NCBI GenBank assembly: GCA_973895155.1
Contig: OZ316893.1
Location: forward strand, 3,058,430-3,122,429
DNA length: 64,000 nucleotides
Reading direction: 5' to 3'
DNA from: Marsupella aquatica
Taxonomy: Eukaryota > Plantae > Marchantiophyta
Shown here: piece by piece, positions 6,601 through 56,592 of the stretch
How the letters are laid out: every line of letters begins with the position of its first letter
How positions within the stretch are numbered: position 1 is the first letter of the stretch
Made by a program: the position numbers and the translations under genes
The notes under the pieces: model-generated
The model's database searches: none
What the model was told of the DNA's origin: nothing
Seen by the model: only the letters and a program-made list of their open reading frames with translations

Positions 6601-7640
6601 GATCTATCGTGTATCACCTTCCCTGGAAAATGCTTCGTGAATTAATTGAATGTTGAACGTAAGAGTTCCTCGATTCTCTACGAGCAATTGGCAATTGACC
6701 TCCCTAGCCTGTGCAATCATATGCACACCGTATGCACATATTAAATGACGTCCCAAATTATTTTCCTTGGAATCGTCCCAAATTATTTTGCAGCCCCGAG
6801 TGCAGAACTTTAGTTTGGAGAACGCACAGGTACTCCAACGTGGTAAAACCTAATCATTGTCAAGTGGAGGCTGTGAAGGAGAAGATGCTTGGACACGACC
6901 TTGCGAGAAAGGGCGTATCACATGCATGGGAGCAATATATGCTTTCCACCAAGCATTGCAGCAGAACCCCGACTTGATGGAAGCTCTACTCGGAATTGGG
7001 AGTGCATTCTTCCCAGAAGGTGAATATGAGAGGGCAATCACTCACCTAAGTCTGCTAGTTGAGTGGAGCTCATTTGCATCTTCTCTAGTAAAGCACATCG
7101 AAAGTGCTCGTGCACTAGGCAATGCTTACAGCCTCCTTAAGAAGCACTACCGTAAGCCATCACGCAGAGCTGATGATTCGATTGCGATTCAAGCGGTGGT
7201 GCCATGGGCGTCAGCTCTTACGCTAAGGAAAGAATTTACCAGCGCGGTAGAACTCTGCGACGCACTACTGGGGGGAGATCCTCACAACGGGCTGGCAAAA
7301 GAGATCAGGGAGAGGTGCAGCTTGTGGTGCAAGCCATGGCAGCGGACGTAGGAGGGCGAGGACATTGGTATACTTGTCCCAATGGTCATTTATACACCAT
7401 TGGGGAGTGTGGAGGAGCCATGCAACTTTCAAAGTGCCCTGACTGCAAGCAGATGTGGGAGGGGAACAGCATCGACTCACAGCAGACAACAAGTACTCCA
7501 ACATTAACGGATCTGAGAGAGCTGCGTGGCCTGGCAATGGAACCTACTCGAAATTGGACGATCGACGTGTCACGTTTATGTTTGTGACAAGGTACACCTC
7601 GTGGACAAAATGCACATCAAGCATAATCGGACGCGCTTGA
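3689..7640 (+). pseudogene. ZNFX1: ZNFX1-like SF1 (UPF1-like) RNA helicase with NF-X1 zinc fingers, TPR segment and C-terminal RZ finger; 5'-truncated, multiple stops/frameshifts
   Basis: Motifs spread across frames: FEPYYHVLKGLQ, VVGMTTAAAA, IVIVEEAAEVLE, LIGDHLQLQP, SMFERL, RMRPNIS, VSSVDDYQGEESDIIILSLVRSN, NRICVALRRAREGLF; Cys-rich NF-X1 repeats 5580-6400; FVQLQDCGHIF; GT-AG intron ~6576-6793; GHWYTCPNGHLYTIGECGGAMQLSKCPDC (RZ finger). In-frame stops e.g. ~4764 and ~4892; Walker A not found. Confidence 0.9.
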
Positions 7641-10956: not shown

Positions 10957-11007
10957 TTTGCTCCGGGAACCCTCATACTCATACTGATAGAGTAAGCGGT
11001 AATCACC

Positions 11008-14000: not shown

Positions 14001-15489
14001 GCTTTCAGCCAGGTGGGTGCTTAGAGAAAAACTTGACCAAGAAGGAAATGTCAAGTTCAAGGCCCGGGTAGTCGCCAGGGGGAATGAGCAACGTGAGGGA
14101 TTGGACTACGAAGAAACCTTTGCTCCCGTAGTCAAGTGGTCTACAGTCAGGCTGATAGTAGCACTTGCAGCGTCTCTTGGTTGGCCCTTATCACACATGG
14201 ATGTAGTGACGGCATTTCTCAACGGCACTCTTAGAGAAACAATCTACATGATGCAACCCCCAGGGTTTCTGACCCCAGGCCAAGAAAAGCTGGTATGTAG
14301 ACTCAGAAAATCCATTTATGGGCTCAAGCAAAGCCCTCGAGCATGGTATGAAGAAGTGGACTCCTTCCTTCGCTCAATTGGGTGCAAACGTAGCTCCCTT
14401 GATCCCAATCTGTATACTATGCATAGGGATGGAAAAATTGCAATCATTCTGCTCTTTGTTGATGATCTTCTACTCACTGGTAGTGGAATAGATCTCATAA
14501 CTGAACTAAAGGAGCAGCTGAAAGCAAAGTACGAAATGAAAGATCTAGGAGCAGCAAAGAGATATTTGGGCATTGATTTTCTTGCTACAGAAACAGGGAT
14601 ACTACTGCATCAGAAGCACTACTCAGATCAACTCGTTCTTGACTATGGTATGGATAAATGTAAGCCTGTAGCCACCCCGTTACCAGAAGGCCTTGAGCTC
14701 TCTGCGGAGACCAACACTCAAGACATCGACTCCACGGATTACAGTCAACTTGTTGGGAAACTCATATATCTCACTAACACGCGTCCGGACATTTCATTTT
14801 CAGTTGGATTAGTGAGCAGATTTATGAGTCAACCACAACAAGCTCACCTTGATGCTGCCATGCACATTGTTCGCTATGTCAGTGGAACATCTGATCTGGG
14901 AGTATTCTACGCCAAGGATAGTCCACTTGACTTAGAAGGATTCACTGATTCTGATTGGGGAAATTCCTGTCCCGACACGAGAAGGTCAACTGGCGGATAC
15001 ATATTCAAGCTCTCCGAAGGTCCTGTCACCTGGAGTAGCAAAAGGCAACCAACGGTGTCCCGGTCCACCACAGAAGCAGAATACAAAGCACTCTCGGATG
15101 GTGCCCAAGAAGGAGTCTATCTTAAACGGCTACTCGAAGAACTGCAAAGTAATGACTCTCCTCCAAGCAAAGTCCATTGCAAGAACAGCGACGTCACAAC
15201 AGACCTGGTGAACGCAACCCCGACACTTCAAGACTTACACTTAAATTGTGATAACATGAGCGCTGTTAAGCTTGCAAAAAATCCAGTGTTCCATGCCCGA
15301 AAGAAACATTTGGAAATACATCACCACTTTGTAAGAGAACGAGTACTCGAAGGGGAACTTTCTATACATCACGTCAAATCTGAAGATCAAGTAGCTGACA
15401 TCTTGACAAAGTCACTGTCGAAGATAAAGTTCATTAGAAACCGAGATGTATTAGGAATGCGATCAGTAACCCAACTACAGTCAGGATGA
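11008..15489 (+). CDS. Copia gag-pol polyprotein (gag, CCHC, protease, integrase, RT, RNase H), 1493 aa
   Basis: CNFCGKRGHWEADC, WILDSGAS, LWHQRLGH, HSDLCGP, RSDRGGEY, QNGVAERKNR, MDVVTAFLNG, LFVDDLLL, FTDSDW, TEAEY, KHLEIHHHFVRE in copia order. Confidence 0.98.
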   Translation: MASGDATKLSFSDSDKLTGAHNYIVWSFYVEQILRERDLWEIVDPTTNTPTPTAGGSNAAQQHTPSQAQSAASASSEGGDAQQRPAATSGPAAGASKSLADVQKQKDRVIIILTKTVHSSIIPIVRRLSKDPAKLWAILKQKFESSALQQKLDLKSALAEARMSEGSSVEAYLKKIEYHVMQLGSIGEEIDDKELIHIVLKKLPASWSAFKSVYSVMYAKDPLATFADLEEYLQAEEFSRKPHNEADEQSLLALTYPKRGEGSRGHRGRGRGRHDRGRPHRAYDGGPDRRNCNFCGKRGHWEADCFIKTADTEIKTMSVSQLKDLHSKIKDIKATPASKAYFAEGDIGDNNSEFGESSDPKSSLTIEAMLSELDANSTEDKTWILDSGASAHISRDNSGFVNLTGGASTSTVLTANGSKMPVTGSGCIPLSGNKSIRDVLYVPSIARNLLSVGKFTDQGHSVLFNSSSCYIFDPNRPSQPYLKGYRDPRSKLYKVKLPDRPPGRNLAKTTLLHPKLSSQCHLAESRLSQTELWHQRLGHSSHQRISYMIRKELITGAPSSLPTPDQLCETCIKGKQSRHRIPKLATSRATKTLELIHSDLCGPLPVASLSGARYIMTFTDDFSRHSWVYFLRTKDEALNKFKIFKQEVETSLGAKIMCLRSDRGGEYMSDLFRSFCQQQGIHRQLTVAGTPHQNGVAERKNRTLLNIVRSLSIGSNFPAYLWEELVNTANYINNRCSTRALNLSTPTECLTGIKPDVSHFRIIGSTAHVHIPKEMRNKLQPKSIRTVLIGYDNNSKAYRCFDPESRKILISRDVIFDESTQGDFSTTQVHQQESILDLFPFDDNSDSEPVTANQVPVVDSTTPEMDPPTSDSIDNLPMEQAAEIPDSSSNFTDTPTAVPEPRQVRRARQRASQRALQRTRSPSGRMTSHPYWLSDFTAYISETTEQLFLALLAESIDNISVNDALSDSRWVSAMQLEMDAHRKNGTWELVNLPPGEKVLSARWVLREKLDQEGNVKFKARVVARGNEQREGLDYEETFAPVVKWSTVRLIVALAASLGWPLSHMDVVTAFLNGTLRETIYMMQPPGFLTPGQEKLVCRLRKSIYGLKQSPRAWYEEVDSFLRSIGCKRSSLDPNLYTMHRDGKIAIILLFVDDLLLTGSGIDLITELKEQLKAKYEMKDLGAAKRYLGIDFLATETGILLHQKHYSDQLVLDYGMDKCKPVATPLPEGLELSAETNTQDIDSTDYSQLVGKLIYLTNTRPDISFSVGLVSRFMSQPQQAHLDAAMHIVRYVSGTSDLGVFYAKDSPLDLEGFTDSDWGNSCPDTRRSTGGYIFKLSEGPVTWSSKRQPTVSRSTTEAEYKALSDGAQEGVYLKRLLEELQSNDSPPSKVHCKNSDVTTDLVNATPTLQDLHLNCDNMSAVKLAKNPVFHARKKHLEIHHHFVRERVLEGELSIHHVKSEDQVADILTKSLSKIKFIRNRDVLGMRSVTQLQSG

Positions 15490-30243: not shown

Positions 30244-31192
30244 ACATTTTGCCAAAAGATATGGATTTGGTTTGATTCTTCAAGTTTTGGTGTGGCATTT
30301 TTTTTCCTGGTTCAAGATTGTGTTCTTTCCCCAAGAAGTGTCTAAGGAATCCTTGCACAGTTTGGTCAACCCTGTGAGTAGGAGGGGTGGTGACAGCACT
30401 CCACCAATGACCAGTAGGAGTGTGTGTGTGGCGTAGTCCATGGGACTTGATCAAAAGCAGAGCGGCTAGTCGGTAGACTTGATCAAAAATTACATTTCAG
30501 GAAGCGGAAATAAACATACTCATCCTACATGCAATAGAATCCTAATACACTACAACACTACCGACCCCTTTTGCGAACCCCGTCCCATCGCAACTAACAA
30601 AGGACCAAATTATGAAATTCCGGCGTTTGCGAAACGCTACGCATCGCAACCCTTTCACATTCTTTGAAACCCACAGCTTCGCAATCGGACTTTCGCAACC
30701 CCTTCGCAACACCTTCGCACACTGCAAAACTTATTTTATCGCACATAAATCACATTTATGCGATCTCGACAGACTCTTTATCGGTTTGCGACGCGCTCTG
30801 AACTATAACTTATTTGCGAAGCTGTTGTCTTGACAATTCCGTTGCCATTCATATGGTATCGCATAACTGCGTCAGTCAGGGTGTCGCTCAATTGCGGAAC
30901 CAAAAGTATCGCAATGTTCCAATACTCAATGTATGGCAAGTTTGCGATAGTATGGCGTTCGCATGTGTTTCGCAAGGATAGTTTGAGGGCTGGGTTTTGT
31001 ATATTTGGGTTCATAATTGGGTTGGGGTCTTATTGCTCCACATGAAGATACCAAAGCAAAACTTTATATATGCCAAAAATCCCTGAATGTACAAAAATTA
31101 GGGTTTTCTAAAACCCTATGGGGTATCAAATACCAAGACACTGTCCTTTGACTAATCCATATGCCATATGGAGTGAACTACATCTGCATCCT

Positions 31193-33245
31193 CTAGAATG
31201 GAGCCCGCCTACTCCTCTTTGCTGGCCTCTTCCCCTTGTCCTTCTTGCTTTGGGCGGGACGAGCTGGATGGGAGGGGGGTGGTGGTGGCGGTGGCGGTGG
31301 TGGTGGTGCCTGCTGCTCCTCCCCATCTGGCTCATCCTCATCATCCTCATCATCATCCTCCTGGTCTCCTGGTGTGCTAGGTGTGGTAGCACTCCCTGCC
31401 CCTCTGGACCCACTCGTGGTGGCCCCGGTAGTGTCCCCATCATCAGCGCCGCTATCCTCCTCACTGCTATCCTCACTCCCCTCCTGCTCCTCCTTATCCT
31501 GCTTCCATGTCACAAGGTTAATTCGGGTTTAGGGGTAATAGGAAAAATGTATAAACCTTATAAATGGAATGGGTGCGGGTTTAGAAAGGGTACTACAAAT
31601 CACTTACACTAGCCAACTCTGCATCAACCAACTCAAAGAGATGTCTGGCCCCATGCTCTGCCCCTATCTCCATCTCCTTTGTTGTTATCTTGCGGCGGTA
31701 CCTCTTATACTACCACAAAAAAATGAAACACCAAAACATGAGGGGCCCGGGTTAGTAACTAAGGGTACTTAAGCAAAAAAGGAATCCTAAAAAGGGTAAA
31801 AAGGGTACCCTAACCAGAAAAAAACCCCATTACCCTAACAAACATTTGTCACTCGACACTAAACGTTTTTCAAAATGAAACAAGCTTTACGAAACTCCCA
31901 CCTTCGCAAATTCAAATATATTTAAGTTTGCGAAATAGACTGCGAATCGGATTGCTTCGCAATGGCTTTGCAAACCTTACGGGAAAAAGGTTATAATAGA
32001 GTTTGCGAAACAATTGCGAGGCAACCCGCTTCGCAATTGTTTCGCAAACTGTGCTTTTAAAAAAATCCGAGAAATGGCTAAGGCACGCAATGTGTCAGGG
32101 TGACCTAAAACGAAAGGGGAGGCCATAAGGGGTAAAGCAGAGGTCTGCGAGGGGCATTGTAGGCAAGCAAACAACAATTGAAGGCGAAGGAAAAGAAGCA
32201 GGGGAGGAGGGGAGAGGACTCACGAAGGTTGCTTTCAGGCCGGGAAGTCCACCTTGCCCCATCTTGTGTGTGGTCTTGGGGCGTTTGCTGACTCGGTCTG
32301 CTGCAAGGATGAACTTCTGGGGTGGTGTCCCACTTCATCTACGATGTGCTGCAGCTGAGAGACCTTCTCAGCCAATGCCTTGAGGTCTTGGTCTGACTTC
32401 CCGGCCTGAAGTGCCTTGGCCTCCTTCTCCTTCCAGAATTGGAGGTCCTTGGCTGCTTTCAGCTGCATCTCGACCTTATAGAACGCGTTCCACACATCCT
32501 TTGTGAATTGCACTGGCCTCCTCACATTCTTGTACTCCTGCAAGCTTGCCAGGTAGGCCCTCACCTTCCTCCTATCATGGTATCGTGCTTGAGACATTGA
32601 ATTCAAAATTCTATCTGCAAGCCACTGGTCACCAATCTCTGCTCCATTTCTGAATGAATCTTTGACCTGAGTCATTACTTTCCTCTGCTCTGCTCTGCTT
32701 AGTTTCCCCCACTCAACACCTCGTGCAAAGCTAGTCCTCACAGCAAGCCTGATAGTGCTCTTTGCCCCAGTGTAGGCCAACTCAGTAGGAATGCCCTCAA
32801 CCAAGGCAATCAATGGCAGCTTCTAAGTCCTCTCTTCCTCCTTTTTCAGCTGCGCCTCACGTTGTGCTCGAATCTCATCTCGTTCCTCCCTTCTCCTCTT
32901 CTTTTCGAGGGCTGCAGGAGAGAGTACTCCTGCCTTAGCCCTCTCCTCCTTCTTTCGTTTCTTCTCTCTGGCCTTCTCCTCAGCTGCAGCCTTTGCCTCT
33001 TTCTCCCTCTGAGCCTGCCCTGCTGCAACCCCGGTTTGCAAAGCTTGCCCTAGAATTGCACTCAAAGAAGCAATCCCAGCTGGTGTACTCAAATCCAAAT
33101 GGCTCAGCTGTGTGGCATTGAGATGCTCGGCCATCAAATTCATCCATTGATTACTCTCCTCATTCCTGTTCCCTCCATTGCCATTGCCACTCCCACTCCC
33201 ACTTGCCCCTGCCCCATCCCCTCCACGCCCTCCACTAGAATCCAT
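31193..33245 (-). pseudogene. CACTA second gene (TnpA-like), spliced, divergent from the transposase; one nonsense and one frameshift
   Basis: ORFs 32823-33245 and 32235-32813 are in frame across a single TAG. A frameshift near 32330 restores PKTTHKMGQGGLPG; GT donors at ~32223 and ~31607; small exon YKRYRRKITTKE...; acidic/Pro-rich last exon with a basic NLS-like tail. Confidence 0.6.
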
Positions 33246-34608
33246 AGCTATCCAACACCAAGCGCGCGCAAGCTCTCCTCCTGCCCTCCCTCACTTCAAA
33301 AAACGAATGGGCCTCGTAACCCGGCGGGAAGGTCCAAATGCCCAAACAAAACACATTTGCGACGCAGTCCGCATCGCAATTTGCGAATCAGCCCGCTTCG
33401 CAACTAGTATCTCAACTTTCCAAAACCAATGCGAAACCACATGCTTCGCAAAGCCTTCGCAAAGCTGCAGAGACGCGAAAAAACGCTCTCGGGCTCTGTT
33501 TTTCCGAAGCTGTTGCAAAACATTTTGCTTCGCAAATAATGTGACCAAATTTTGAAGCAGGTTGCGAAGTAGGTCGGTTCTCAATATCGTGGCAATTCCT
33601 GGCGAATTTTTTTTTCACATTCTTTCCCTCCTCCTTTTGTTTAGACCATGTAAGTTATACTATGCCCTTTTGTGTAATTAAGAAATTCCGCCGTTTCAAA
33701 TCCCGGCGTTTGTTAGGGTTGGGTCTTGGATGAAGCTGGTTTTTTTAGGGGTTAAAAGCGAGATTACCAGTCAAACCTTCCGTTTTTTAAGCTATACATG
33801 GTGTGGGTGTAGGCTAATTTTGATAAGAGTTGGGTTTTGGTTTAAAATTAATAAGTGAGGAAAGGGTTTAGGATTAAAGTTGGGTTTGGGTTTAGGGTTT
33901 AAGTCTTTAATTTTGGGTTTAAGCAGGGTTTGCATTTATGGTTGTAGGCTTTTAGGGTTCAAGCAAGGGTTTAGGGTTTAAAACAAAAGAGAGGAAGGGG
34001 ATTGGGAGTGAGGGTCTAGGTTTTTGTAATAGGTCAGAGGTTTGGGGGTGAGGGTTTGGAAAAGGCAAAGCAAGGTTAGATGAGATTAATGTTTTAGTTG
34101 TTTTACCATGGGTTTTATGGGTTTTAATGGGTTTTATGGATCTTTTGGGTTTTAATGGTTTTTCCATGGGTTTTATGCTAACAAAGGAGGAGGAGCTATG
34201 ACAACTTGTAGGGTGCGGCACTTTTGCATGAATTGATACTAGCTAATGCGTATGCATCGTGAGAGCCCGGGCATTTGGAGGTACGGACTAAAATAGATGG
34301 GTCTAGTTAGGCTTATTCATGTAATTAAAATTTTTGGTTCCCACTATCTATAAAGAGGACATGTATGTAAGGTGTTCGCTTTGTGTACTTGCAGCTTTTC
34401 TCATACTTCTAGATTCGGTTCATTATTTTAGAGCCACAAGACCTATTGGCACCGCTGAGCCTGGGTCTCAGAAAGCTATTTTTTAGTGTTCCTTTTGTGT
34501 TTGGTTTCATGTCATCATTACTTGAGAAGTTACATTTGTCCAGCTTGATATTGTGATGTTATTTGGTAATAACCCCTAACTTGCAAATTATACATCTTTG
34601 TAGGGGCA

Positions 34609-35759
34609 ATGTCTTCATCTTCTGAGATCTCCACCACAGATTCTTCCTCCTCCGATGAAGATATACCACCTCCTCCTCAACCTCACACGACTGCACCTCC
34701 TCCTCGTGGTCCACCCCGTCAGCTTTGCCAATGTGCCAAATGCGTGGGTCAGGTTTCCCAAAAGTCCTATATATGCACCCAGCATATTGAGAGATATGGA
34801 CGTTACGGACGTCATACAACAGGGGCTTCCTCATCCCATGTGGTAAGTGTTTACGCCTTAGTTTCTACCCTATTTCCACATCGCAATGGTGAAGGTTTTT
34901 AATTTCACACCTCTTGTTGTTTGTTTTGGTTTGGGTGGAATAGGTATCTAGTAGGCCTAGACCTGCGGCATCAGCACCTTATGTCCCATCACAAGGTGTT
35001 CTAGATGCTATAGGCAATGCATTCTCACAAGCCTTGGGTCTAGCAATAGCCCCCTCCAGTCCTAGGGCAGTTGGGGGTGAGCCTGTTGTCCCAAGAGGGA
35101 GAAAGCGTTCCAAGAGACGGCCCCGAGGGGATACTGATTTGTACAAGGCAGTGGTTACCGGTAGGTGGGGTGATTGTGAGTTTACTGGCAGATGTGTTCC
35201 TGTCATCAAGGACTGGGATCCCCAGACTCTTGGTTTGCCACAAGAGCTTTCCTATGGTGAGGAGGTAGAGGTTTGGGGAAGACGTTGGGTTATCAAACCT
35301 TCCACACTTGGGGATAGACATGGCTATGGAGTTTTTGCTTGTGAAGACATCATTGTGGATACCGAGAGTGGTAGTGGTGGACGCGGTCGAGAATGACCTA
35401 CGTTGTTTCCTTATGGTGGACCCATCTACAAGAGAAGACATTGGAACATGATCCTTGCACAACATCCTGAGGGGAAGACTTATGCCTTGGAGTTAGATAC
35501 TTTTGATGGAAACACTAGGAGGTATAGTGAGCAGCGGGTGATAGATGGGGACCCCATACGAACTGGGAATATAGCTGGTTTCATAAACAGTACTGTGGGG
35601 ACTCGCCCCAAGCGTAGGCAAAATTGTGAGTGGGTTTTCATTGAGGGTCCTCCACCAGCCCCTTATGGCCAGACATATCATCATGACCATTGTCTGGTTG
35701 TAGCTACTAGGACCATTCACTCAGGTGATGAGTTGTTTACTCACTATGTGTGGGATTAG
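34609..35759 (+). pseudogene. SET-domain (lysine methyltransferase-like) gene inside CACTA; exons 34609-34842 and 34944-35759; single premature TGA at 35394-35396
   Basis: Phase-0 GT-AG intron keeps the frame. SET motifs: IKPSTLGDRHGYGVFA, FPYGG, IDG...GNIAGFINS...QNC, VVATRTIHSGDELFTHY. Exon 1 encodes CQCAKC-x9-CTQH. Confidence 0.85.
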
Positions 35760-35902
35760 AAAATGACCATACACATGGCGTTTGGCCACATTTTGTATTT
35801 ACACCAGTACCGATATTATTTCATGTTTGCACACCCCCATATATTCTTCTACATGTTGTAACTATTTTCTTTGTAACTTTCAATTGTTTGCATTGTTTTT
35901 AG

Positions 35903-38900
35903 AATGTGCGACCCTCTCAAAATATGTTACCGCGGAGATTAGAGCAGCATATCGGGAAATGGGTATGCCGGAAGAAGGACAAGGCTCTGAGTCACATTCC
36001 TCATCAAGTGACAGTGGAAGCAACAACCCTGATCGCAATGTACCAAGAACATATGAACAGGTTATTGATGACCAAGATAGAGCCATGGATGATTTTATGG
36101 TTGATTGGTTTGGTGTTGACGTCCCTGGTGATGATGCTGAGGTGTCTGCTGATCAAGGAGGTCATGTGCCCCCCAATGATCCACGACCAAGACACACCCC
36201 CGAGGGACAGCGCCAATGGGAGGAAGCAGAGGAACATGCCCGAACTCCTATCTATGAGGGTGCTCGTTTGAGTCATCTTTCTGCTATCTTGGGGTTGATG
36301 AATCTATAGGCCAAACACAAGGCAAGCAATGCCTTGTTATCTGATATGTTTGCACTTTGCCATGACCTTATGTTACCTTCTGGCAATGTGTTGCCAGGAA
36401 CTTGGAAGGAGGCCAAGCGTGTTCTCTCATCAATTGGCATGGAATATCATATCATTCATGCATGTGTGAATGATTGCATGTTATTTCATGGGGCCGATGA
36501 GAAGAAGACACAGTGTACTGAATGTCATGAGCCACGGTATGACCCCAACATGATTACAAAGAAGGTGCCAAGAAAAGCTGTTCGTTGGTTTCCCATCATT
36601 CCTCGGTTGTTGCACATGTACAGGTGTTCTGATTTGGCAGAGTTGATGGTATGGCATAAGACTCATCGATCAGGGCCTGGTGTTATGCGGTTGCCAATTG
36701 ACTCTCCTGCAGTCAAACTATTGAGGAAACATGGCCAGACTTTGCACATGATCCTCGTCATGTGAGGTTGGGATTGGCATCTGATGGGGTTAGTCCTCAT
36801 GCCCTTGGAGGCAAGGGAAGACCTACATCAGTTTGGCCTGTGGTTGTGATGAATTACAACCTTCCACCATGGCTATCCATGAAGAAGGGGTTCCTCTTGC
36901 TGTCTTTGATTATTCTAGGTCCAAAAAAGGTGAAGAACTTTGACACTTATTTGGCACTATTGATTGGAGAACTCCAAAAACTGTGGGGTGGAGTGTGGGC
37001 ATATGATGGCAGGAAAAATACAGGAGGCATTCCACGTGTATTTAAATTGAGAGGGGTAGTTTGTTGGACAATGCATGACTATCCTGGTAAGATGACTTTT
37101 TGACCATATGCCACCCTTCTTTGATATGCTCTTTAATATACTTGTTTGTCATGTGACAACCCTAACATTTAGTCTGGTTTTATTTTTGGTGTAACCAGGG
37201 TTTGGCTTTGTCTCTGGATTGCAAACTCAAGGGTACAAAGCTTGCTCCACCTGTGGTCCACAATTGCAAGATATGGCAATTTGGTCCCCATGGCTTAGGA
37301 AGATTGTTTACATTGGGCATACAAAGTTTCTTCCGATGGGGCATGAGATGAGGTCTGACCCACTTTTATTTTCCTCCTTTGACATGCCCCTTGGTGATAT
37401 GCGGGAAATTCCGGAACCAACAACTTTTGGGCATTGGAAGTCACTAGCTGATAGGGTGGCAGACCCTGATGATCCCCTCACCTTTGATGGTATTGGGTTG
37501 ACGAGGTGGAGTATACTAGCCAGTTTGCCCTATTGGTCAGAGTTGAAGATCCGCCATCTTTTAGACCCCATGCACATAGAGGGAAATGTGGGGAAGGCGT
37601 TGATAGCTCATTTTTATGGGGAGAAGGACACTAACTTCAGGGAGGCATGTGAAGAGTTGGAAATGCATCCAGATGTATGGGTACAAGTTGATCCTGCCAC
37701 AGGTTTGGAACATCGTCTTTCTGCTCCTTGGGTGCTTAGTGTTGGCCAAAGACGTGAATTCCGGAATCGTATAGGGGAGATGCGGTTTCCTACAGGCTAT
37801 GGTGCCAATTTGAGGAAAGCTTTTGGGATGGAGGACAATCACAAATGGTCACGGTATCTCAAGACACATGACTATCACCGCTTATTGCAGCATATATTGC
37901 CAGTGGCAATTATAGGGTTGGGGACCAAAGAAGTGCAAGATGCCATTTGGTCATTGGGTCGTTTGTTGAGATGGATATGCTCAAATGAGATATATGTGGA
38001 AGAGATTCCTGGAATGGAGGTATTGGCTGCTGAGGTGGTTTTCAAGTTGGAGAAGGCCCTCCCTCCTTCCTTCTTTGATTGTCAGGTTCATTTGCTTGTG
38101 CATCTTGTGAGGGAGGTTGCCATTGCTGGTCCAGTTCATTGTCGATGGATGTACTGGCTTGAGCGTTACATGTCAGTCTTGAAGGCTTATGTACGTAACC
38201 GTGCACGAGTGGAGGGAAGCATAGCTACAGGATACTTGGCTGCAGAGAGCATGTTTTATTGTAGTAACATCTTGGCCACCATTGATCAGACTTTACCACG
38301 TACTTGGATGGAGGAGAGGCAAGAGGAGGAGGACCGTTTAACAGGAGCAACAAAAACACGCATGCTTACATCAACAGAGTGGACACAGTTGAATACATTC
38401 ATGTTGAGTAATAGTAATGTCATGGATGAATGGAGGGAGTTTTATGACAATGCCAAAAGAATGAGTCAAAGGGCAAGGATTTTTCCTAAGTTGCATGAGT
38501 TTATGAAGGAAAAGTTGGTTGAGTTGGATGGCATTTTGGCACAAGGAGGAGATGTCTCACAGTTTCCTACTATGACAAATGACATTCGGACCATTGTTCA
38601 TGGCCCTTTGAGAGTGGTAACATCCAAGACGGCCATGTGGACCCAAGGGAGACACTTCAGGTTTCACTAGTTCCTAACCTTGTTTTCCATATTCATGTAC
38701 TACTACTTAAGATATAGTAATCATTTTACTTAAGATAAGTGTGTTTTTCTCTTTTGGTATGAAAGGTTCCTCATAACATGATTAGTGTTTTTTGTGTAGT
38801 AGTAACAATATATGGGTCTTGTTAATTTCAGGATTTCTTCCCTTGATGAGAAGAGGGCTCGTACTTTTGATTGTGGAGTTCAAGGGCAGTTTTGTCAGGA

Positions 38901-39318
38901 CTCCCGGAGTAGCCGACATGACAGGAACATTGTTCGTGATGTTGTGCCACACTATGGGAAGATAGAGGAGATTTTGGTGGTCTCATATGACAACCAATCT
39001 AAGTTTGAGGAGTATGTCTTCAAGTGCAAGTGGTTCAAAGTGAACCTTGTTGGTAATAATCACATTGTACTCCACGATGAGAGTGGGTTTACACGGTTGA
39101 GGACAAGTGCCACTAGTTTTCAAGCATCTCATTGGCAAACGTCAGAGCCATTTACTTTCCCATCTCACTTGGAGCAATGTTTCTACATTCCATACCCCTT
39201 AAACCCAGAGTGGTCACTTGTCATCACATATGTGCCACGGTCTCGTTCCATTGTTTCAGACAAGCCAGACACTATTTTTGTGTCAGATGTAGAGGACATT
39301 GAAGGTGACCAAGTGTGA
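35903..39318 (+). pseudogene. CACTA TnpD-type transposase (Transposase_21 / DUF4218 / DUF4216-like); exons ~35903-37086, 37199-38660, 38832-39318
   Basis: IHACVNDCMLF, RLGLASDG, YNLPPWL, HDYPG, LDPMHIEGNV, KTHDYH, FFDCQVHLLVHL, GPVHCRWMYWLER, HYGKIEEI, FKCKWF. Nonsense TAG at 36307-36309 and a frameshift at ~36718. Confidence 0.93.
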
Positions 39319-40604
39319 GAGACACTTATGGATATTTAAACCAAAAATCTATATCATGGATTGTTCATGTTGTTTCTTAATTAATATTTCATACACCATT
39401 AGTGTGGTAGGTATTTTCATTTTGGACTCCTACTTTCAAAAGAGGTCATGCATATAAGTGACATGGGTACTCCCTCCCTTATCCCTCCTCCCTCTTTGAA
39501 CCCAAACTCTCCTTCCTCTTCCAAAAACTCCATAGCTTTTTCTCCTCCCTCCCTCTTCGCTAAAGTCTCTCCTATTTTTAGTAAACCCTCTTTGGACTCC
39601 CTTCTTCCTCCGTCCCTCATCCACCTTCCAACTCCCTTCCTCCCTCTTTCACCTTTCACCTCCCTCCCTCCTCCTCCCCCATTCAAACTCTAGCCTAGAT
39701 GCACACACAAGTCTAACATAAACGTTTGCGAACTGTTTGCGAAACTAAACAAATCCCAACCAAATCGCAATTTTGCCATTTAAACCGTTTCTCAATTATT
39801 CCATACTATACGCTTCACTATTTTGCGATATCCAGACCATCCCACCTTTACCATCCACATCGTTTCGCACATTTGCCATACAAACCCATCGCAAATTGTT
39901 TGAAGCTAACCTTTTCGCAAACATCCTCCAATACTAATTGTTTCGCAACATTAATGTTACCGTGGTTTCGGACTTTCGGAGCGGTCGCGGAGCCTTCGTA
40001 ATGTGTTTTGTAATCTCTGTAGTTTCGCAAAATATTGTGATACAATAAAGTTCGCAAAATGTTTGCGATGCAAATCGCATGGAAGACCAAAGTTGCGATA
40101 CCACAAGTATCGCAAATTGCGATGCGTATTGAGTCATCAACGGTTTGAAGCATCTGGAATCGCAAACGTGTGTCCGGACGCAAATGAGCTTCGCAAAAGG
40201 GCAAAATATGTTGTAGTGATAGCGTCCCTCCACGTTCCCGTCATACGATAACAAACGATTTTAGCAGGAGTAAATACGTATTTGCCATGTAAATTGTTTG
40301 ATAAGCAGGTGACACTTGGTTGGGTGCCTTTTGTTTTGGCTGTTTGAAACATAGTCTTTCTTGATATATCTAGACACAAAGAAGGTTTTGTCTAATTAAT
40401 AACAAGTCAAAAATAGATTTGAGTAGCAAGTGTCATGTGTTGTTGGTCTTGACAATACTGTCATATGAAGTCAGTGCAAAGCGGTCCTCTATGTAGGAAG
40501 CACAAGTTTCACTTGACATATTTGTATACTCTTCTGTACGCGCGTATACTCTTAAATTTAACTAATAATACAGATTTCTATGTAAAAAATCTTTATTAAA
40601 TTTC

Positions 40605-45826: not shown

Positions 45827-47358
45827 CTACAAACTTTTCAAACCCGTCTCTTCACCTTTATCACGTTTCATCAGGCCCTTCTTTGGGTCGATAAGAGTAC
45901 CATAGACCCAATCCATGAATATGGTAAGATGGCCGTAGTTGTACTTGTAATGAGTGTGGTGGAAGTTATGATAGCCGGCTCCCAAAATTCCATAAACACC
46001 TCCTTCAATTGTGTCGTGGATGTTGGCGGTCCAGATCTCCTCCAGGAAGAACAAGATGTAGTACGTTTGAAAGTGCATCGGCACCAAAAACAGCGCGAAG
46101 ACAAGTGGACTGGCTTGCAATATTCCATCGAATGGGTTGAATGCTAGACCTGCGACGAAAAATATTGCAGTGAGTCTCTCAGATGATTTGGAAACTGTAG
46201 ACCAAAGACTCTTAAAGGGTGTTCAATGATGGAATATACTCAAGTAAAGAGGCATCGAGAGTCTTTTCCGGTCCAAGAAGTTACATGCAGACAACAAGAC
46301 ATTTATCAAATAATCTGCTTCCACTGTGCGTGTAATTTCCAAAGCTAGTAGCTTTAATTAGTGCTTGGAATGGAGTCCTTTGAGAAATTGAACAAACCTG
46401 CGAATGGAGATACAGTATTCAGCTTCGAGTAAAAGTGGTGGCTGTGGTGCATGTACTTGTAGAGAAGTGGTGTGTGCAACCACCTGTGAAACCAATAAAC
46501 CCAGAACTCACAGAAGGCCAGGTAAGCACCGATCTGCACGGTGTAGGCTACTAATCCAACCTCTTCCACCTCTGCGTAACAGAGCGTCCATCCTTTCTCG
46601 ACAATATACTCCGCAAAAGTCGGAAGAGCAGTAATAACCGGAAGTCCCACGAAGCTCATGACCATCTGCTCCATCACCGGTTTCATTGCAAGGTTACTGC
46701 CTGCGAAGATTGGAAGCCAAGTAAGTAGGACCTCAGATAACGTGTCCCTCAAAATGAGGTCTGCTCTCGAGATCTGGTCTCAAAACCAAAGAACAAATTA
46801 ATCGAATAAGAATGAGGGACGCAGGAATTCCTTTTAAACAATTTGATGTTCAGAATTGGCACCGCCAATTTATCCAACAGCCTCGTCTGAGCACATACAA
46901 AAACTCTGCCGTATACGCAGATCATGTATTATGTATACCTTACGTTGACTTGACGTCACCGAGTAGGAAACGGATTGAAGCTTACCTCGATAGGTCGGCT
47001 CTTTCTGCCACCAGTAACCATGGAAATAGATAGCTCCTGCAGACAGGAAGTAGATAACCGTGCCAGCCCACCAGTTCCGAAGCCATGTTATGCTCCAATG
47101 GGGAAGTTGACCTCTAATAGGAGCTCGATTAACCGGTCCTAAGATCATGGAGTTTATATCATCTGTCTGTTTCACGAAAAGGTAGTTGTACTCGGCAGAG
47201 TACTTGACAGGCTTTCCCCCCACCACGTCGTCGAACTGAGAATTTGTCGAATACAGCGCGGTACCATTAGCTTCTTGGGCCGTGGTGACGGAGACGACAG
47301 AAGCACCGATGATGGTAGCCGCAGCAAGGGCCATCATCGGCAGCCACATTCGCACCAT
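45827..47358 (-). CDS. DWF7: Delta(7)-sterol C5(6)-desaturase-like; exons 47358-46986, 46700-46398, 46149-45827 (332 aa)
   Basis: Two phase-1 GT-AG introns give one open frame. His boxes HRWLH, HHSHH, HNFHH; WLRNW, SPFAG|[40 protein letters not shown]-like TATAAAA at ~47760-47766. Confidence 0.93.
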
Positions 47359-49820: not shown

Positions 49821-52617
49821 ATGGAGGAACAGGGGATAGACTATTATGGACCCTCGAGCCGCAGGAGCACGAGGGGGGGACGCTTAGCTGGTGGACGAGT
49901 AGATCGGAGGACACAAGGGGAGCCTGCTGCAAGGCTTGAGGTGGGGGGGATACCCGGTGAAGCTGTGGGGCGATCACCTGCGCGGGGTGTTATGGTCAGT
50001 GGACCTGCTATTGGATTCTCTGCGCAAGATGCGCGCTCTGGGAGGAACGACCCAAATTTGGGGGAGACAACTGCGGCCAGATCTCAGTTGTATTACTTGA
50101 ATGGGAATGAGCATCCGGTGAATGGACCTGGACCTAAGGTGCAGTCGGTGAGTGGAATGGAATTGCCTCAGAACCTGCAGGAGGGGGATGGAGCAGGGGA
50201 GAAGGAAGGCGAAGCTCTGCACTGGGGGCATGGAACAATTGGAAGAGGGGCGAATGAGGTTAACCAGGATGCAATGGTGGGGAGTGAGGCCCTGGGCCCC
50301 CAGCATTATTAATAATGGGTTGGACGTGCGAACGGATGAAGGGTGCAAAAAATCTGATTTGAGATTAATTTTTATAATTGGCTTAGAAATATCAAGGGAT
50401 GGTTTTATTCAAAGAACCCTTTCTAACTAATATAGGCTTATATAAATGTTGCCCAAGTTAATATGCTTCAAGAGGTGATGTAATATGGATGTGACACGCG
50501 TCACAATAGGATTGGTCCTTGTGGCCACCCTTTATTGGAACATGTGTATATGACATATAATTATGCTTGCAATATCTATGATTCAGAGTAGTTTAGGACT
50601 TTGGAGCTTTTGAACCCTGACTACCCTGCCGTGTGGTTCAAAAATGCCCCAAAGTTGAAGTTTGGGGTTAAAGGGTCACGAACACAAAAATGTATGTACC
50701 CAAAACCCTTCCAAAACACTCCCGTCAGTTTTAGAACCGTGTGCAAATGATGAATTTATAACTTTTCAAGGCTTTCATAAATGGTGTAAAATGTGAAATT
50801 ATAATATCTCAAAGGGGCAGATTTATTCTCCAAAATTAAGTTTTTAAGAATAACAAGAGAAATTTTTATAGGCTTCCAAAAATAATAAGGGGTACTAAGG
50901 AGGGGGGTGTACGCACGTATACCTCTTTAGTTTACAAAGGCTGGGGGCCCAGGGGAGTGAGGTGCCACAAGAAAATGTGGAGATGCAGGACGCGCCCGTG
51001 GAGGATGACGAATCTGAAGAGTGTATCAAGATCCTGCGCGAGATTGCGATCAGGTCCAAAGGTGATCTTGACAAGAGACTCTTTGCAGAAGTGGAATGGA
51101 ACCTACCGGAAGCAGCTCGTAATGTGAGACAACTATATAATTGCGCTCTCATATGCTACTTCACGGGAAGAACGCCGCTCCTCAATGATTTTAGAGCATG
51201 GGTAGATGAAGTGATGACAAACCAGGAGGGATGGCCGGTACTTCAGGTTAAATTCGTAGGGAAGAACTTTTACATGATAGTGTTTGAGGATCCTAATCAC
51301 AGGGATCTGGCACTCAACTACGCACCATGGTTTATGGAGAGACGATTTATATACACGTTCCCATGGGATCCATCCTTTGATGTTAAATGTGAGAACTTCA
51401 CGAAGCTCCCAGTGTGGATTGAGATACCGTTTAGGGACCTTGCACTAGAGGGCTGCAGAAGAAAGATTGCGTGCTCTCTAGGGACTCTGCTGTACTACAT
51501 TCAGGGGAACGAATTCAGTTCGTATCCCCACGATCGGGCTTGCATCCTTTGGGACACGGACAGGGAAGTCCCTGCCAGTGTGAAGATTCGAATTCGTGAT
51601 GACATTATTATCTGGCAACCGGTGACATTTAAAAATATCCCCTATCATTGCTTTCAATGCAACCAAAGAGGTCACCTGGCCCGTGAATGTAAAGTAATCT
51701 TGGAGACTGCCGGTGCTCTACGGACGGGAGCGGACCCGCCGGACGAGAAAGATGACGAGAGACACTCTGAGGCTGATCAGGAGGAGGTGTTGAGGGCTAA
51801 AGAAAATGCTGAAGCACGTGCTATTTTTCGGGGAGCCATGGTGCCTCCTGTGCTGGAGGTACCCTTTTCAGTGGAGGAGGATATCGCTCAAGTGGAGTTG
51901 CTAATTGTTAGTCCGGTTCCTGGGGAGATGGCAGGGCGGGACTCGGGGCCGCTGCTACGGGAGAACCCGGATTTGCGGGTGGCGGCTTTCTCTTCGGGAA
52001 CCAGGGAGAGAAGTGCTGATTTTCTCCTGACGCCTGGGCGGGCTGGTTGCATGGAGGACTCACAAGACACAGAGGCTGCCAGGATTCCACTACTGGCTGT
52101 CGTTGTCACGTCAATTGGGCGATGGACTACTCAGAGAAATTCAGTGGAACAAGGAATTGAAGCCCTTACTACTCCCAATTCGCGTGATGGAAATGATGAG
52201 ACCTTCTCCTTTCACGAAGAATCTGATGCGGAGATGTCTGAATATGAAGCTTATATTTCACACAGCAAATTCAAAGCTAGAGCCCGCAAGCAAGAACTTC
52301 GCACACCGCCCTCTGAAAGGACTGAGAAGGCCAAAGGTGAGGCTAAGAAGCAAAGATCAATTAGATTCTCACGTGGTGCCATGTCTGATGCAGGAAGTGC
52401 GGACGGGATTACAATGCACAAGCGACTGCTGCTCACCATTCCTAGAGGGAGCGATTGTGATGTGAGGGTCCAGGGGAATGCTCCTTTTGGCGGTGGAGTG
52501 GCGCATATAGCATCCCCCATGCGTGTCTCTCCTGCTGGCTCTATTAATGGATATTTGAGTGGACCTATGGGTCGAGATGTGACGGGGATGTCTCCCGGGG
52601 GACGGAATAGACTATGA
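49821..52617 (+). pseudogene. L1 ORF1 (DUF4283-like + zinc knuckle), interrupted by a TIR element; ~707 aa when restored
   Basis: Removing 50290-50954 plus one TSD joins ..MVGSE|VPQENVEM.. in frame. Motifs PVWIEIP and CFQCNQRGHLAREC. Confidence 0.85.
50290..50954. mobile_element. 665-bp MITE with perfect 15-bp TIRs and 8-bp TSD
   Basis: CCCTGGGCCCCCAGC / GCTGGGGGCCCAGGG; TSD GAGTGAGG at 50282-50289 and 50955-50962; AT-rich interior. Confidence 0.93.
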
Positions 52618-52671
52618 GACGCAAGGATGGGGGGTGGCTGTGCCAGGATATAATTTTGGCATAGTAGGAGG

Positions 52672-55600
52672 ATGGATGGAAGGCTCAGGGTGGCATCCTG
52701 GAACGTTTGTGGACTTTGTGAGCCTAACCGTAAGCATATTGTTAAGAATTGGGTAAGATCGCTGAAGGTACCGCTGGGGATTCTGGCCCTTCAAGAAGTG
52801 AAAGTTGATCAATTTAGACTTGATATGGCTCTGCGGGCTATTCTCCCATCATATCAGCACTTTTCTTCTAAGCCGGAGGAGGGAAAGGGAGGAACGGCAC
52901 TACTGGTACACCCTGAGCTGAGGGTGGTGGGCTCGGGAACACTGGATATGGGAAGGGCGGTATGGGCTGTGATCGAGAAGGGAGCGGTGACCTTCGGAGT
53001 TGCGTGTATATATGCTCCCAATTCAGCTAGACTAAGAGCTCTGCTATGGAATGATCTAAAGGTGATGCTACCACACAATGACTGGGTGCTGTGTGGTGAC
53101 TTCAATATGACGGAACGCAGAACGGACTCGACTGGTACATCACCGCTGATCCGCGGTAGAGAGGCTGAGTTTTGGAGATTCTTGAAGATGAGATTTAATT
53201 TGACAGACACGTGGGACATTAGGGGAGGAGCTGCTGGCCCGCGCTTCACGTGGAGAAGGAATCGGAATGGAGAGATGTCACAGTCTCGACTTGACAGGAT
53301 TTATGTTAGTGAAAGGGGAGAATGGCTTTGTGAGGTGGAACTCCTGCATGACGGGGGCTCAGCCCTTTCGGATCATGATCCTGTTATGTTGAATGTGCAG
53401 CTCTCTGGACTGATAGAGACGGTGGAGAGAGGCAAAGTGAGTCTCTTCATGGCCAACCCGGCGTTTCTGCGGAGAAGGGAGGACATTCTGCGGCTGGAGG
53501 CTGCTTGGAGGGTGGGACGAGGAGATTTTGTGGACCCGCGGCTGCGCTTTGCTAAGGGCAGCTGGAAAATGCGTCAAACATTGAAGGAAATTCAAGCCCA
53601 ACCAAGGACAACTGAGATGGAGATGGCAGCTCAGCAAGCTCAGTTGCGAGTTCTTAAGATGGCCATTATAGAACACCATTCAGAGGGAGACATTGCAGAG
53701 TTCATGGACGCGGAAGACACTCTACATGCTTCAGAGTTGGAGGAAGCACACAGAGGACGACGGCTAGCCAGAATTAAGTGGTTAAGTGAAGGAGACGAGT
53801 CAACAAAGTTTTTCTTTGCTACAGTGAGGGCTAAGCGATCTCGTGAGTCCATGCCTTCCCTGAATAGGGAGGACGGGAGTACAGTAGCTGACCCTGGAGA
53901 AATCCTGAAGGAGGTAGAAAGGTTCTGCCAAACATTATACTCGCCTGAGCCGCGATTGGAAGCGGAGTTGGAAGAGGTTCGTGTGGCCAGAGACAGACTG
54001 CTTGGCAACACGAGGTTTGCACTCTCTGGAGCGGAGAATTTGAGGATGGAGAGACTCCCGTCATACCAGGAGGTGAAGGAGGTGCTGTGGCTCCTGCCTT
54101 GTGACAAAACGCCGGGACCGGATGGCATGACAGCTGAGGTCTACAGAGCATGCTGGGAGTTTCTCGGGCAAGATCTGGTGGATATGATACAGGAGTTCTG
54201 GCTTACGGGGGCTTTGGACGTTGGAATCTGTGAAGGAATTGTGAAGTTCATACCCAAGAAACCTGATAAACGGTTTTTAAGGGACTGGCGCCCTTTGACA
54301 ATGTTAAATACTATATACAAGCTCATTGCCAAGATCCTCGCTATACGACTCAAACCGATTCTACACATGATTATTAGCCCGCAACAGACTGGATTTATAC
54401 CTGGAAGACACATTCTTGAAAATATTTCCTTAGCCTGGCTTACATGTGACTGGGTGCACAACAAGAGGAGAGAGGCATTGTTCCTAAAACTGGATTTCGA
54501 GAAGGCCTTTGACCGTGTTTCACATGACTACTTATGGGAATGCATGCACCTACTGGGCATCAGCGGACGCTTCACTATGCTGGTCAGGGCCCTGCTAGCA
54601 CAGGCATCTTCCAGGGCCTTGGTGAACGGATTACTATCAAACACATTTGAGCTTAAACGAGGGGTAAGACAGGGCTGTCCACTGTCACCATTGTTGTTTG
54701 TCATCTCCACGCAACCTCTTATGGACTTTCTCGATACTGAGATGGCGGAGGGCCAACTTTGTGGGCTGCAGATCACCCCTGGATTCACTATCTGCTATAG
54801 ACTGTTTGCGGATGATGTTGGGATGTTTATCCCGGCCACAGAGCGTGCCTTTGAGGAAGCAACCACTGCTCTAGAATGCTATGAGATGGCTAGTGGGGCG
54901 CGACTGAATCTGAAGAAATCCGTTGTGATCCCATTGGCATTGGAAAGGATCCCAGAGTGGCTGAACAACACAGGCTGCCTTATCAGCCGAAGAGGCGAGA
55001 TACAGAAATACCTGGGGGCACCTTTTGGGGAGAGTTTGAGCACGGAACAACTGCACAAATTCTGTTTGGATAAGATTTGTGCCAGACTTTCTGTTTGGTC
55101 CAACAAACTTCTTTCTTTTACTGGCTGTTCACTACTGGTCAAACAGGTACTACTTGCTATCCCGATCTACCATGTAATGTATTGCAAGGCATCTGTAGGC
55201 CTGGCGAAGAAGATGATTGCTCTGAGCAGGGAATTTTTATGGGGATATAATGCCACTGGAGGACGGAAGGTCCCCCTGGTGGCCTGGGATCGGATGGCTT
55301 TGCCACGTGTGGAAGGGGGGCTGGGATTCCGGGACTTCCGCAGTCACTCTGATGCATTACTCTCTCAATGGTTCACTAAGGCACTTAACGCGCCTGAGAC
55401 GGAATGGTCTAGGATGTTGGCAGCCAACCTGAAATTGATGGGGTGGACGAACTACAAAATTATTAGGCAAAATGGATACTCCTTCCAGGACCGGCTGCTA
55501 CTGTGCACACCTCGTTCATTTAGTGGGCTCCCCTACACGACAGGTCTCTGGAGAAGCTGGGAGCTAGTGAGAGCCCACTTATTCTTCGATCCTGGACGAA

Positions 55601-56592
55601 CGGGGCCGCCTTCCCGGTGGAGCATCATGGATACCCTCAGGTGTATGGTGGGCTTCAATTCCCTTCCGAATAAAGCCCTCATAGAGATTGCTGCGATTTG
55701 TGGCAGGCTGGGATTGAGGTCTATTGGTGATAGATGGTCGACGGAGGATGGATGTTGGAAGGACCTACCGCTACGATGGCACAATATGCGTGGCTTTTCT
55801 GATGAGCATCGAACGATGGCTCGTTCGTTCTTGGAGTGCCTTTGGCGGGCAGACAATTGCCGATCTGAATACTACTTGTATGCCAAGCAGTGGAGATGGA
55901 CAGACAGACCGGAGCCGCTGAAGGACTTCAGAATCGAGAATTGTAGAGTGTATGATTTCTTAAGGCCTAAGACTGCATCCCATGACCGCCTCAATCGGAT
56001 CTGGTCACTGTTCTGGCCTGAGATGCGCTGGAATATGTGTTGGGCTAAGCTTTGGGGGTCTGATCTTCCGATTAGAGGCAAGACCTTTGTGTGGAGGATT
56101 ATTGTAGGGGGCCTTTTCACTGGGGCACGTGCGCTCAGAATGGAGGTGAGTAATGGAGATTGCAAGCTTTGCAAAGGATGGCTGGAGACGATCCCCCACG
56201 TGTTCTTCCACTGTACACATGCGGTCCGTTGCTGGCTACTCTATCAGGATTCGTTGCAGATTCTGAGCTTGCCAATGGGACGAGGTCTGATGGCTCTTTT
56301 AGAGGCGGCCTGCGGGAAGGAGCCTGTGCAAGTGGCCCGGATCTTCGTCTTGCACCATATTCTGTGGCGACTCTGGACGGGAAGGAACACTCACATGTTT
56401 CAGGTGGGGGGGAGACGGGTGTTTGACTTGGGACTTGTCCTGAATGAGGCAGCGGAGAACGCTTTTGCTGTTAGTCGGCGCTGCCCCCCGGGCAGGAAGT
56501 GCACCCGCCTGATTCGGGCAAAGGCATGGATGGATGACCTGCGTAGGGTTTGGGTAGGCAGTGGCAGCATTGCTGTCAATTCTTTTGCTTGA
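52672..56592 (+). CDS. L1 ORF2: AP endonuclease, reverse transcriptase, C-terminal zf-RVT (1306 aa, open)
   Basis: SWNVCGL, GDFN, SRLDRIY, SDHDP, PGPDG, WRPLTMLN, LDFEKAFD, GVRQGCPLSPLLF, FADD, YLGAP, CKLC..ETIPHVFFHC. Confidence 0.97.
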   Translation: MDGRLRVASWNVCGLCEPNRKHIVKNWVRSLKVPLGILALQEVKVDQFRLDMALRAILPSYQHFSSKPEEGKGGTALLVHPELRVVGSGTLDMGRAVWAVIEKGAVTFGVACIYAPNSARLRALLWNDLKVMLPHNDWVLCGDFNMTERRTDSTGTSPLIRGREAEFWRFLKMRFNLTDTWDIRGGAAGPRFTWRRNRNGEMSQSRLDRIYVSERGEWLCEVELLHDGGSALSDHDPVMLNVQLSGLIETVERGKVSLFMANPAFLRRREDILRLEAAWRVGRGDFVDPRLRFAKGSWKMRQTLKEIQAQPRTTEMEMAAQQAQLRVLKMAIIEHHSEGDIAEFMDAEDTLHASELEEAHRGRRLARIKWLSEGDESTKFFFATVRAKRSRESMPSLNREDGSTVADPGEILKEVERFCQTLYSPEPRLEAELEEVRVARDRLLGNTRFALSGAENLRMERLPSYQEVKEVLWLLPCDKTPGPDGMTAEVYRACWEFLGQDLVDMIQEFWLTGALDVGICEGIVKFIPKKPDKRFLRDWRPLTMLNTIYKLIAKILAIRLKPILHMIISPQQTGFIPGRHILENISLAWLTCDWVHNKRREALFLKLDFEKAFDRVSHDYLWECMHLLGISGRFTMLVRALLAQASSRALVNGLLSNTFELKRGVRQGCPLSPLLFVISTQPLMDFLDTEMAEGQLCGLQITPGFTICYRLFADDVGMFIPATERAFEEATTALECYEMASGARLNLKKSVVIPLALERIPEWLNNTGCLISRRGEIQKYLGAPFGESLSTEQLHKFCLDKICARLSVWSNKLLSFTGCSLLVKQVLLAIPIYHVMYCKASVGLAKKMIALSREFLWGYNATGGRKVPLVAWDRMALPRVEGGLGFRDFRSHSDALLSQWFTKALNAPETEWSRMLAANLKLMGWTNYKIIRQNGYSFQDRLLLCTPRSFSGLPYTTGLWRSWELVRAHLFFDPGRTGPPSRWSIMDTLRCMVGFNSLPNKALIEIAAICGRLGLRSIGDRWSTEDGCWKDLPLRWHNMRGFSDEHRTMARSFLECLWRADNCRSEYYLYAKQWRWTDRPEPLKDFRIENCRVYDFLRPKTASHDRLNRIWSLFWPEMRWNMCWAKLWGSDLPIRGKTFVWRIIVGGLFTGARALRMEVSNGDCKLCKGWLETIPHVFFHCTHAVRCWLLYQDSLQILSLPMGRGLMALLEAACGKEPVQVARIFVLHHILWRLWTGRNTHMFQVGGRRVFDLGLVLNEAAENAFAVSRRCPPGRKCTRLIRAKAWMDDLRRVWVGSGSIAVNSFA

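Follow-up and report, generated by a model that had tools for sequence, protein, structure and literature searches.

The window, by which we mean the whole 64-kb stretch of DNA that was analysed, contains a CACTA element of 9,671 bp (30548-40218) with 10-bp terminal inverted repeats (TIRs) and an ATA target-site duplication. Within it lie a two-exon SET gene, a TnpD-type transposase gene downstream of it and a third gene upstream on the minus strand, together with clusters of a short repeat:

30545..30547, no strand: left target-site duplication, ATA
30548..30557, plus strand: left TIR, CACTACAACA; the same 10 bases open 5 metagenome loci, with 4 different flanks
30571..30975, no strand: left subterminal repeat cluster (core TTGCGA/TCGCAA)
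31193..33245, minus strand: third gene, predicted exons 33245-32224, 31709-31608 and 31498-31193, with one stop and one frameshift here
31904..32047, no strand: internal repeat cluster within predicted intron 1 of the third gene; L006, L009 and L031 have a cluster at the equal place
33357..33567, no strand: internal repeat cluster between the divergent genes, at the equal place in L006, L009 and L031
34609..34842, plus strand: exon 1 of the SET gene, a Ser/Pro-rich start followed by a CxCxxC-x13-H-x4-G motif; donor GTAAGT at 34843; dN/dS 0.09-0.16 in 18 loci
34944..35759, plus strand: exon 2 of the SET gene, comprising a linker, a conserved pre-SET part and the SET domain, with a TGA at 35394-35396
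35903..39318, plus strand: TnpD-type transposase, predicted exons 35903-37086, 37199-38660 and 38832-39318, with Transposase_21, DUF4218 and DUF4216
39726..40196, no strand: right subterminal repeat cluster
40209..40218, minus strand: right TIR, CACTACAACA inverted; the final 30 bases match the right end of L022 at 27 of 30
40219..40221, no strand: right target-site duplication, ATA

The element has the features of the CACTA (En/Spm) group, namely TIRs starting CACTA, a 3-bp duplication, a TnpD-type transposase (broken here) and clustered subterminal repeats. The TTGCGA/TCGCAA motif occurs 44 times inside the 9.7-kb element versus 16 times in the remaining 54.3 kb of the window. These motifs form four clusters, two at the element ends and two flanking the main exon of the minus-strand third gene; the cluster at 33357..33567, from its place between the divergent genes, is likely to be a promoter region. 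CpG observed/expected is depleted in the coding interior of the element (0.31-0.32) and not depleted at its ends (1.4-1.5), a pattern compatible with methylation of the interior and with protection of, or selection on, the ends, although the repeats themselves contain CG. A second pair of CACTACAACA/ATA ends was not found anywhere in the 64-kb window.

This copy of the element is dead, because the transposase (frameshifts near 35940 and 36720, stop at 36307-36309) and the third gene are broken as well as the SET gene. Locus L022 (1-2449) is a deletion derivative, in which the transposase is truncated and the right TIR lies no more than ~60 bases further on. Elsewhere, the window holds a Copia retrotransposon whose single open frame has 1,497 codons (10996-15489, plus strand), a LINE with two open frames of 572 and 1,312 codons (50899-56592, plus strand) and two host-like gene pieces, one with an AAA_12 helicase and TPR (4930-7351, plus strand) and one with a fatty-acid hydroxylase (45827-46779, minus strand).

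Exons 1 and 2 of the SET gene join in frame to give 349 codons interrupted by the single TGA, and the exon split is identical in the 8 metagenome loci inspected and in the Calypogeia and Sphagnum gene models. The ends, the in-frame join and the layout bear out the preliminary description of this DNA, which placed a two-exon SET gene inside the TIRs and target-site duplications of a CACTA element, just ahead of its transposase. All the motifs it had named are present in the protein (GYGVFA, YGG, GNIAGFINS..QNC and GDELFTHY), and the post-SET cysteines are absent as it said, the protein stopping 3 residues past its final Tyr. A CGA>TGA origin had been proposed for the stop; the aligned codon is instead GGT (Gly), not Arg, in 28 of 29 matched loci. 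The TGA had also been called the only lesion, and it is indeed the sole stop in the SET reading frame, but it may not be the only damage, because a Trp of close relatives reads Gly in the window copy.

A first search of 2,421 candidates yielded 42 related proteins, the named ones coming from Calypogeia fissa, which is 74% identical to the window protein along the full exon, from five Sphagnum species and from Riccia sorocarpa (42%). With HMMER we obtained 96 clusters (clustering at 50% identity), including one repetitive artefact; every species-named cluster (8 of 30 looked up) was Riccia or Calypogeia, the closest named atlas clusters were Streptophyta, and genomic context is known for a minority of these 96 distant members. 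Pattern scans, which reach close relatives only, returned none from viral contigs or prokaryote genomes. Alignment A2 took 77 sequences from the 42 and 96 overlapping hits, leaving out the repetitive P0070 and short fragments, and the tree used the 66 of 78 rows with at least 140 residues and no host SET sequences. In this tree, the window protein groups with the Calypogeia protein (support 99/94), and the named relatives make a bryophyte the likely host of the window.

Gene order is constant in 44 metagenome loci: minus-strand gene, exon 1, SET exon, transposase. Where at least 450 bases were available downstream, the transposase was present in 22 of 26 loci, the 4 misses having a SET cut at its 3' end, and the third gene lay upstream in 11 of the 16 loci with 2 kb there. 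Because the peat-metagenome copies are only ~70% identical to the window element in DNA (dS ~0.7-1.8 depending on gene), we assign the window element to a family separate from theirs. Three Riccia gene models (P0086, P0116 and P0130) run from SET-family sequence into Transposase_21; their close kin form two well-supported clades apart from that of the window, at 30-45% identity, so that three separate branches in all have SET ahead of transposase.

When the window was compared with 24 loci, dN/dS in the SET core was 0.19-0.31, with an upper bootstrap limit of 0.36-0.46 in the 3 cases bootstrapped; L002 compared with 17 other loci gave 0.34. Five comparisons of the transposase gave 0.14-0.19, and ten of the third gene 0.16-0.26. 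These contrasts are non-independent and amount to effectively about two, because most loci belong to one family. Among young copies the ratio was ~0.8 (131 pairs), as expected of decaying insertions and no proof of function. In the comparison of dN/dS among copies, which the preliminary description had put forward as a check, the between-family values indicate constraint. It had also asked whether SET is open in some copies: 6 of the 15 loci with a near-whole exon 2 are free of stops. In aggregate, synteny, purifying selection, the three SET-transposase branches and the fact that no hit looks like a near host parent uphold the earlier view that this is a stable element gene and not a captured host fragment, which we now regard as almost certain.

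Pfam SET was matched above its cut-off, with E 2.5e-6 when the stop was read through as X and 9.6e-6 when only the part following it was used, and 59 of 78 family members matched at E 0.01. An AlphaFold model made with the 78-sequence alignment (pLDDT 91, pTM 0.87) was likewise predicted to be a SET fold, with SET domains heading the list throughout in Foldseek and VIA-align; profile and predicted structure thus support the domain assignment. Searched among solved sequences, the narrow alignment A1 did not find SET, and the wide alignment did. Set1, EZH2, SET8, SET7/9, ASH1L and LegAS4 are level at Z 11.5-12.5, none exceeding 26% identity (yeast Set1: Z 12.5, rmsd 2.5, 123 residues), H3K4, H3K27, H4K20 and H3K36 enzymes match the predicted fold equally well, and viral SET structures, at 16-23% identity among the highest-ranked matches, have no advantage over cellular ones. 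Because many SET families tie at such identities, the predicted fold points to no particular substrate, and the window protein belongs to an orphan SET family. The replacement of NH by NS had been read as PR/PRDM-like: the Asn-Ser is there, family-wide, but the comparison does not support that reading, since PR domains reach Z 7.5-10.9, no higher than ordinary SET domains and in part lower, and none of the 78 members matched the PR family of Pfam.

Catalytic roles in SET domains are assigned to GxG, YxG, the motif-III Asn and ELxxxY. In the alignment of 78 members, the GxG glycines are kept in 67/71 and 69/71, the YxG position is Tyr in 56/73 and Phe in 17/73, and the motif-III Asn (70/78), the Glu (67/69) and the final Tyr (64/68) are retained. 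Three departures are family-wide: the Arg of RFxNH is Gly in 72/78, its His is Ser in 74/78, and the tail past the final Tyr has a median of 5 residues (63 members; 3 in the window protein). The family thus has the GxG, YxG, Asn and ELxxxY with final Tyr of an active SET domain, but neither the Arg and His of RFxNH nor a pocket-closing post-SET part. The residue two before the final Tyr, which we take from SET alignments to be the Phe/Tyr-switch position, is small (Thr 21, Ala 15, Val 10, Cys 8 of 68). A small residue at this position permits multiple methylation, which suggests that the product would be di- or trimethylated.

The best sequence match among solved structures is LegAS4 (E 4.7e-6, 26% identity), which reads INFS, without the NH His, and which, unlike the window family, retains the RFxNH Arg. 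The excerpts of PMC10653858, which also describe the roles of GxG and Tyr in the SET domain, present LegAS4 as an active H3K14 trimethylase, so loss of the His alone need not abolish activity; in the same excerpts, LegAS4 requires a further domain for good SAM binding. The near-absent post-SET tail is the main reason to doubt activity in the window family. Weighing the predicted model with these motifs, we consider that the SET protein is probably an active SAM-dependent enzyme. Its core is not basic (pI 5.9-7.2), and no known DNA-binding or chromatin-reader domain was found in it.

A catalytically dead SET fold could instead act as a binder, reading or shielding a histone tail or serving as a decoy or scaffold against host silencing enzymes. 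The almost missing post-SET part, the Gly and Ser that replace Arg and His in motif III and the Phe in part of the YxG positions all lean that way, and inactive SET proteins that regulate chromatin, SET-24 for example, are described in excerpted literature. Retention of GxG, Asn, Glu and final Tyr among members only 25-45% identical nevertheless suits catalysis better than binding alone, and we judge a dead binder rather unlikely and keep to an active enzyme.

Exon 1 of the SET gene also bears on the transposase. Its donor is phase 0, as is the transposase acceptor at 35901-35902, and in 21 of 23 loci an acceptor dividing TAG from AAT keeps the transposase frame. A Met of its own, at codon 8 of the transposase exon, counts against sharing; the seven codons ahead of it are kept at the amino-acid level (NVRPSQNM in the window, NIRPSEDM in the loci), and the adjoining intron has diverged. 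In its spacing, the CxCxxC-x13-H-x4-G motif matches the N-terminal domain of TnpD from flowering plants (CPCxxC in 14 of 18 such proteins), a domain that the transposase exons lack and of which no better copy was found within the element. The likeness is statistically weak: hhalign gave exon 1 a probability of 33% against that domain, none of 100 fully shuffled sequences attained its score, but 12 of 100 did when CxCxxC was preserved, and exon 1 of one member gave a Pfam E of 0.031. A weak search for longer proteins, with exon 1 as the sole query, returned nothing. With the transposase as query, the full-length proteins found were all distant (~30% identity, the named ones from flowering plants), so that no bryophyte gene model joining exon 1 to the transposase was among its matches. 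We infer that exon 1 more probably than otherwise also serves as the first exon of the transposase, giving two proteins from one unit; by analogy with En/Spm, where TnpA and TnpD arise by splicing, SET would then hold the accessory position.

An in-frame SET-transposase fusion is disfavoured, since exon 2 contains no internal phase-0 donor of the patterns tested, and the GT before DELFTHY in the window, a conceivable fusion donor, is absent from the 10 loci inspected. The fusions in databases look like gene-model artefacts.

The third protein, encoded in three predicted exons under purifying selection, has a coiled coil, a helical domain and an acidic and basic tail. Neither Pfam, the atlas (best 0.82) nor a fold search (poor model) assigned it, and it did not match two proteins with Transposase_24 (TnpA-type). 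It is a candidate DNA-binding partner at the repeat clusters.

From these parts, we tentatively propose, with a confidence somewhat short of even, that the SET protein is a working lysine methyltransferase whose marks on the histones of element copies would keep these copies expressible. Working copies would make the transposase and a small predicted protein-lysine methyltransferase, likely by alternative splicing. The methyltransferase would methylate a histone lysine on element copies, which would then stay active, and targeting would run through the exon-1 zinc finger or through the third protein bound at the repeat clusters. TnpA is described as activating its own family by acting on clusters of family motifs (10.64898/2026.08.24.746577), which offers an analogy for targeting at the TTGCGA clusters. 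If the protein is active, a histone substrate with an anti-silencing effect is somewhat more probable than not, and mark-writing on element copies is plausible.

An active lysine methyltransferase might also act on proteins other than histones, for example the element's transposase or third protein or a silencing factor of the host, and so tune transposition after translation. Such a role would agree with the lack of a reader domain, the non-basic core, the presence of SET7/9 and SET8 among the tied structural matches and a likely co-expression with the transposase, but almost all the close structural matches are histone enzymes, and we hold it to be unlikely. Less probable still is a histone methyltransferase that writes a repressive mark of H3K9 or H3K27 type, by which the element would limit itself or silence rivals. 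EZH2 ties for the best Z, and many liverwort transposons are described as covered by H3K27me3 (10.1101/2022.10.24.513474); Set1, however, ties equally, and the tested regulators VANC and TnpA are described as activating their own elements (10.1101/2025.02.11.637652; 10.64898/2026.08.24.746577). Finally, a neutral host SET fragment carried along by a Pack-CACTA would suit the broken window copy and the ratio near 0.8 among young copies, but is very improbable: one layout extends across liverworts and mosses, dN/dS is ~0.25 between families, the scanned hits show no domain architecture known from a host SET family, solved SET domains are at most 26% identical to the protein, and across database relatives and metagenome loci synteny, dN/dS and tree all depart from what a recent, family-restricted, neutral fragment would give.

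Several DNA transposons are already known to carry SET genes. Closest in description is red-algal Plavaka PAG2, likewise a long-kept SET accessory gene in the CACTA superfamily with internal repeat arrays, for which self-regulation is proposed (10.1101/2025.02.11.637652). As excerpted there, PAG2 is a fusion of SET with an adenine DNA methylase and belongs to a cassette of three genes, in elements of 17-19 kb; the window element, compared by description only, has a stand-alone short SET behind a zinc-finger exon, a Transposase_21 enzyme and a land-plant host. SET genes aboard DNA transposons are also described for HarbingerS and oomycete MuDR (PMC12730594) and for a Phytophthora proto-Helentron (PMC4067079), which, as described, differ from the window element in superfamily and host and have separate genes. 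The functions given for transposon-borne SET genes in excerpts of these sources are proposals rather than test results.

En/Spm shares with the window element its CACTA ends, 3-bp duplication and clustered subterminal motifs, and it makes transposase and accessory protein from one spliced unit, as we suppose for the window (10.64898/2026.08.24.746577; PMC13547354). Its TnpA is described as a DNA-binding protein that recruits host DNA demethylases, whereas the window accessory has a predicted enzyme fold (10.64898/2026.08.24.746577). Excerpts of PMC13547354 report TnpA-like domains from flowering plants only, and no TnpA match was found in the window element. LegAS4/RomA of Legionella resembles the window protein as a minimal SET without the NH histidine and as a parasite's own histone writer, but has post-SET and ankyrin parts that the window family lacks (PMC10653858); at 26% identity, there is no sign of a direct relationship between the two.

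The preliminary description knew of no SET-carrying plant CACTA family. For land plants this stands, as we found no such element in the literature searched, outside which lay Repbase Reports, subscription journals and bioRxiv supplements, and the excerpts of PMC8616336 and PMC11982613 contain none; for the superfamily as a whole it does not, red-algal Plavaka already having SET cargo. What is known, then, is SET genes in HarbingerS, oomycete MuDR, Helentrons and Plavaka, and what is new is a bryophyte CACTA variant with SET. A fuller picture, possible though doubtful, is of an old and diverse moss and liverwort CACTA lineage whose accessory would be an orphan histone methyltransferase in place of TnpA, spliced to the zinc finger of the transposase, writing its own mark, perhaps on an unusual lysine, and moved between liverworts and peat mosses.

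VANC and TnpA, the plant anti-silencing factors tested so far, bind DNA and cause loss of DNA methylation, and neither writes histone marks. With the bryophyte family, the role of a transposon's own SET enzyme becomes directly testable, because the protein is small (~350 residues), intact natural members such as P0002 and P0005 exist and the host group has workable genetics. The family also adds a deeply diverged SET lineage without the usual post-SET part.

Two further observations concern the relatives. In a comparison of window 34944-35759 with P0002, P0005, P0043, P0046 and P0077, the member from the liverwort Calypogeia is nearer to those from the moss Sphagnum (62%, clade support 100/98) than to those from the liverwort Riccia (30-43%), which could reflect horizontal transfer among bryophytes or old paralogous lineages. 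Two very divergent Calypogeia fissa members, P0113 and P0115, have other N-terminal parts, Cys-rich in P0113, and possibly represent other elements or domesticated genes.
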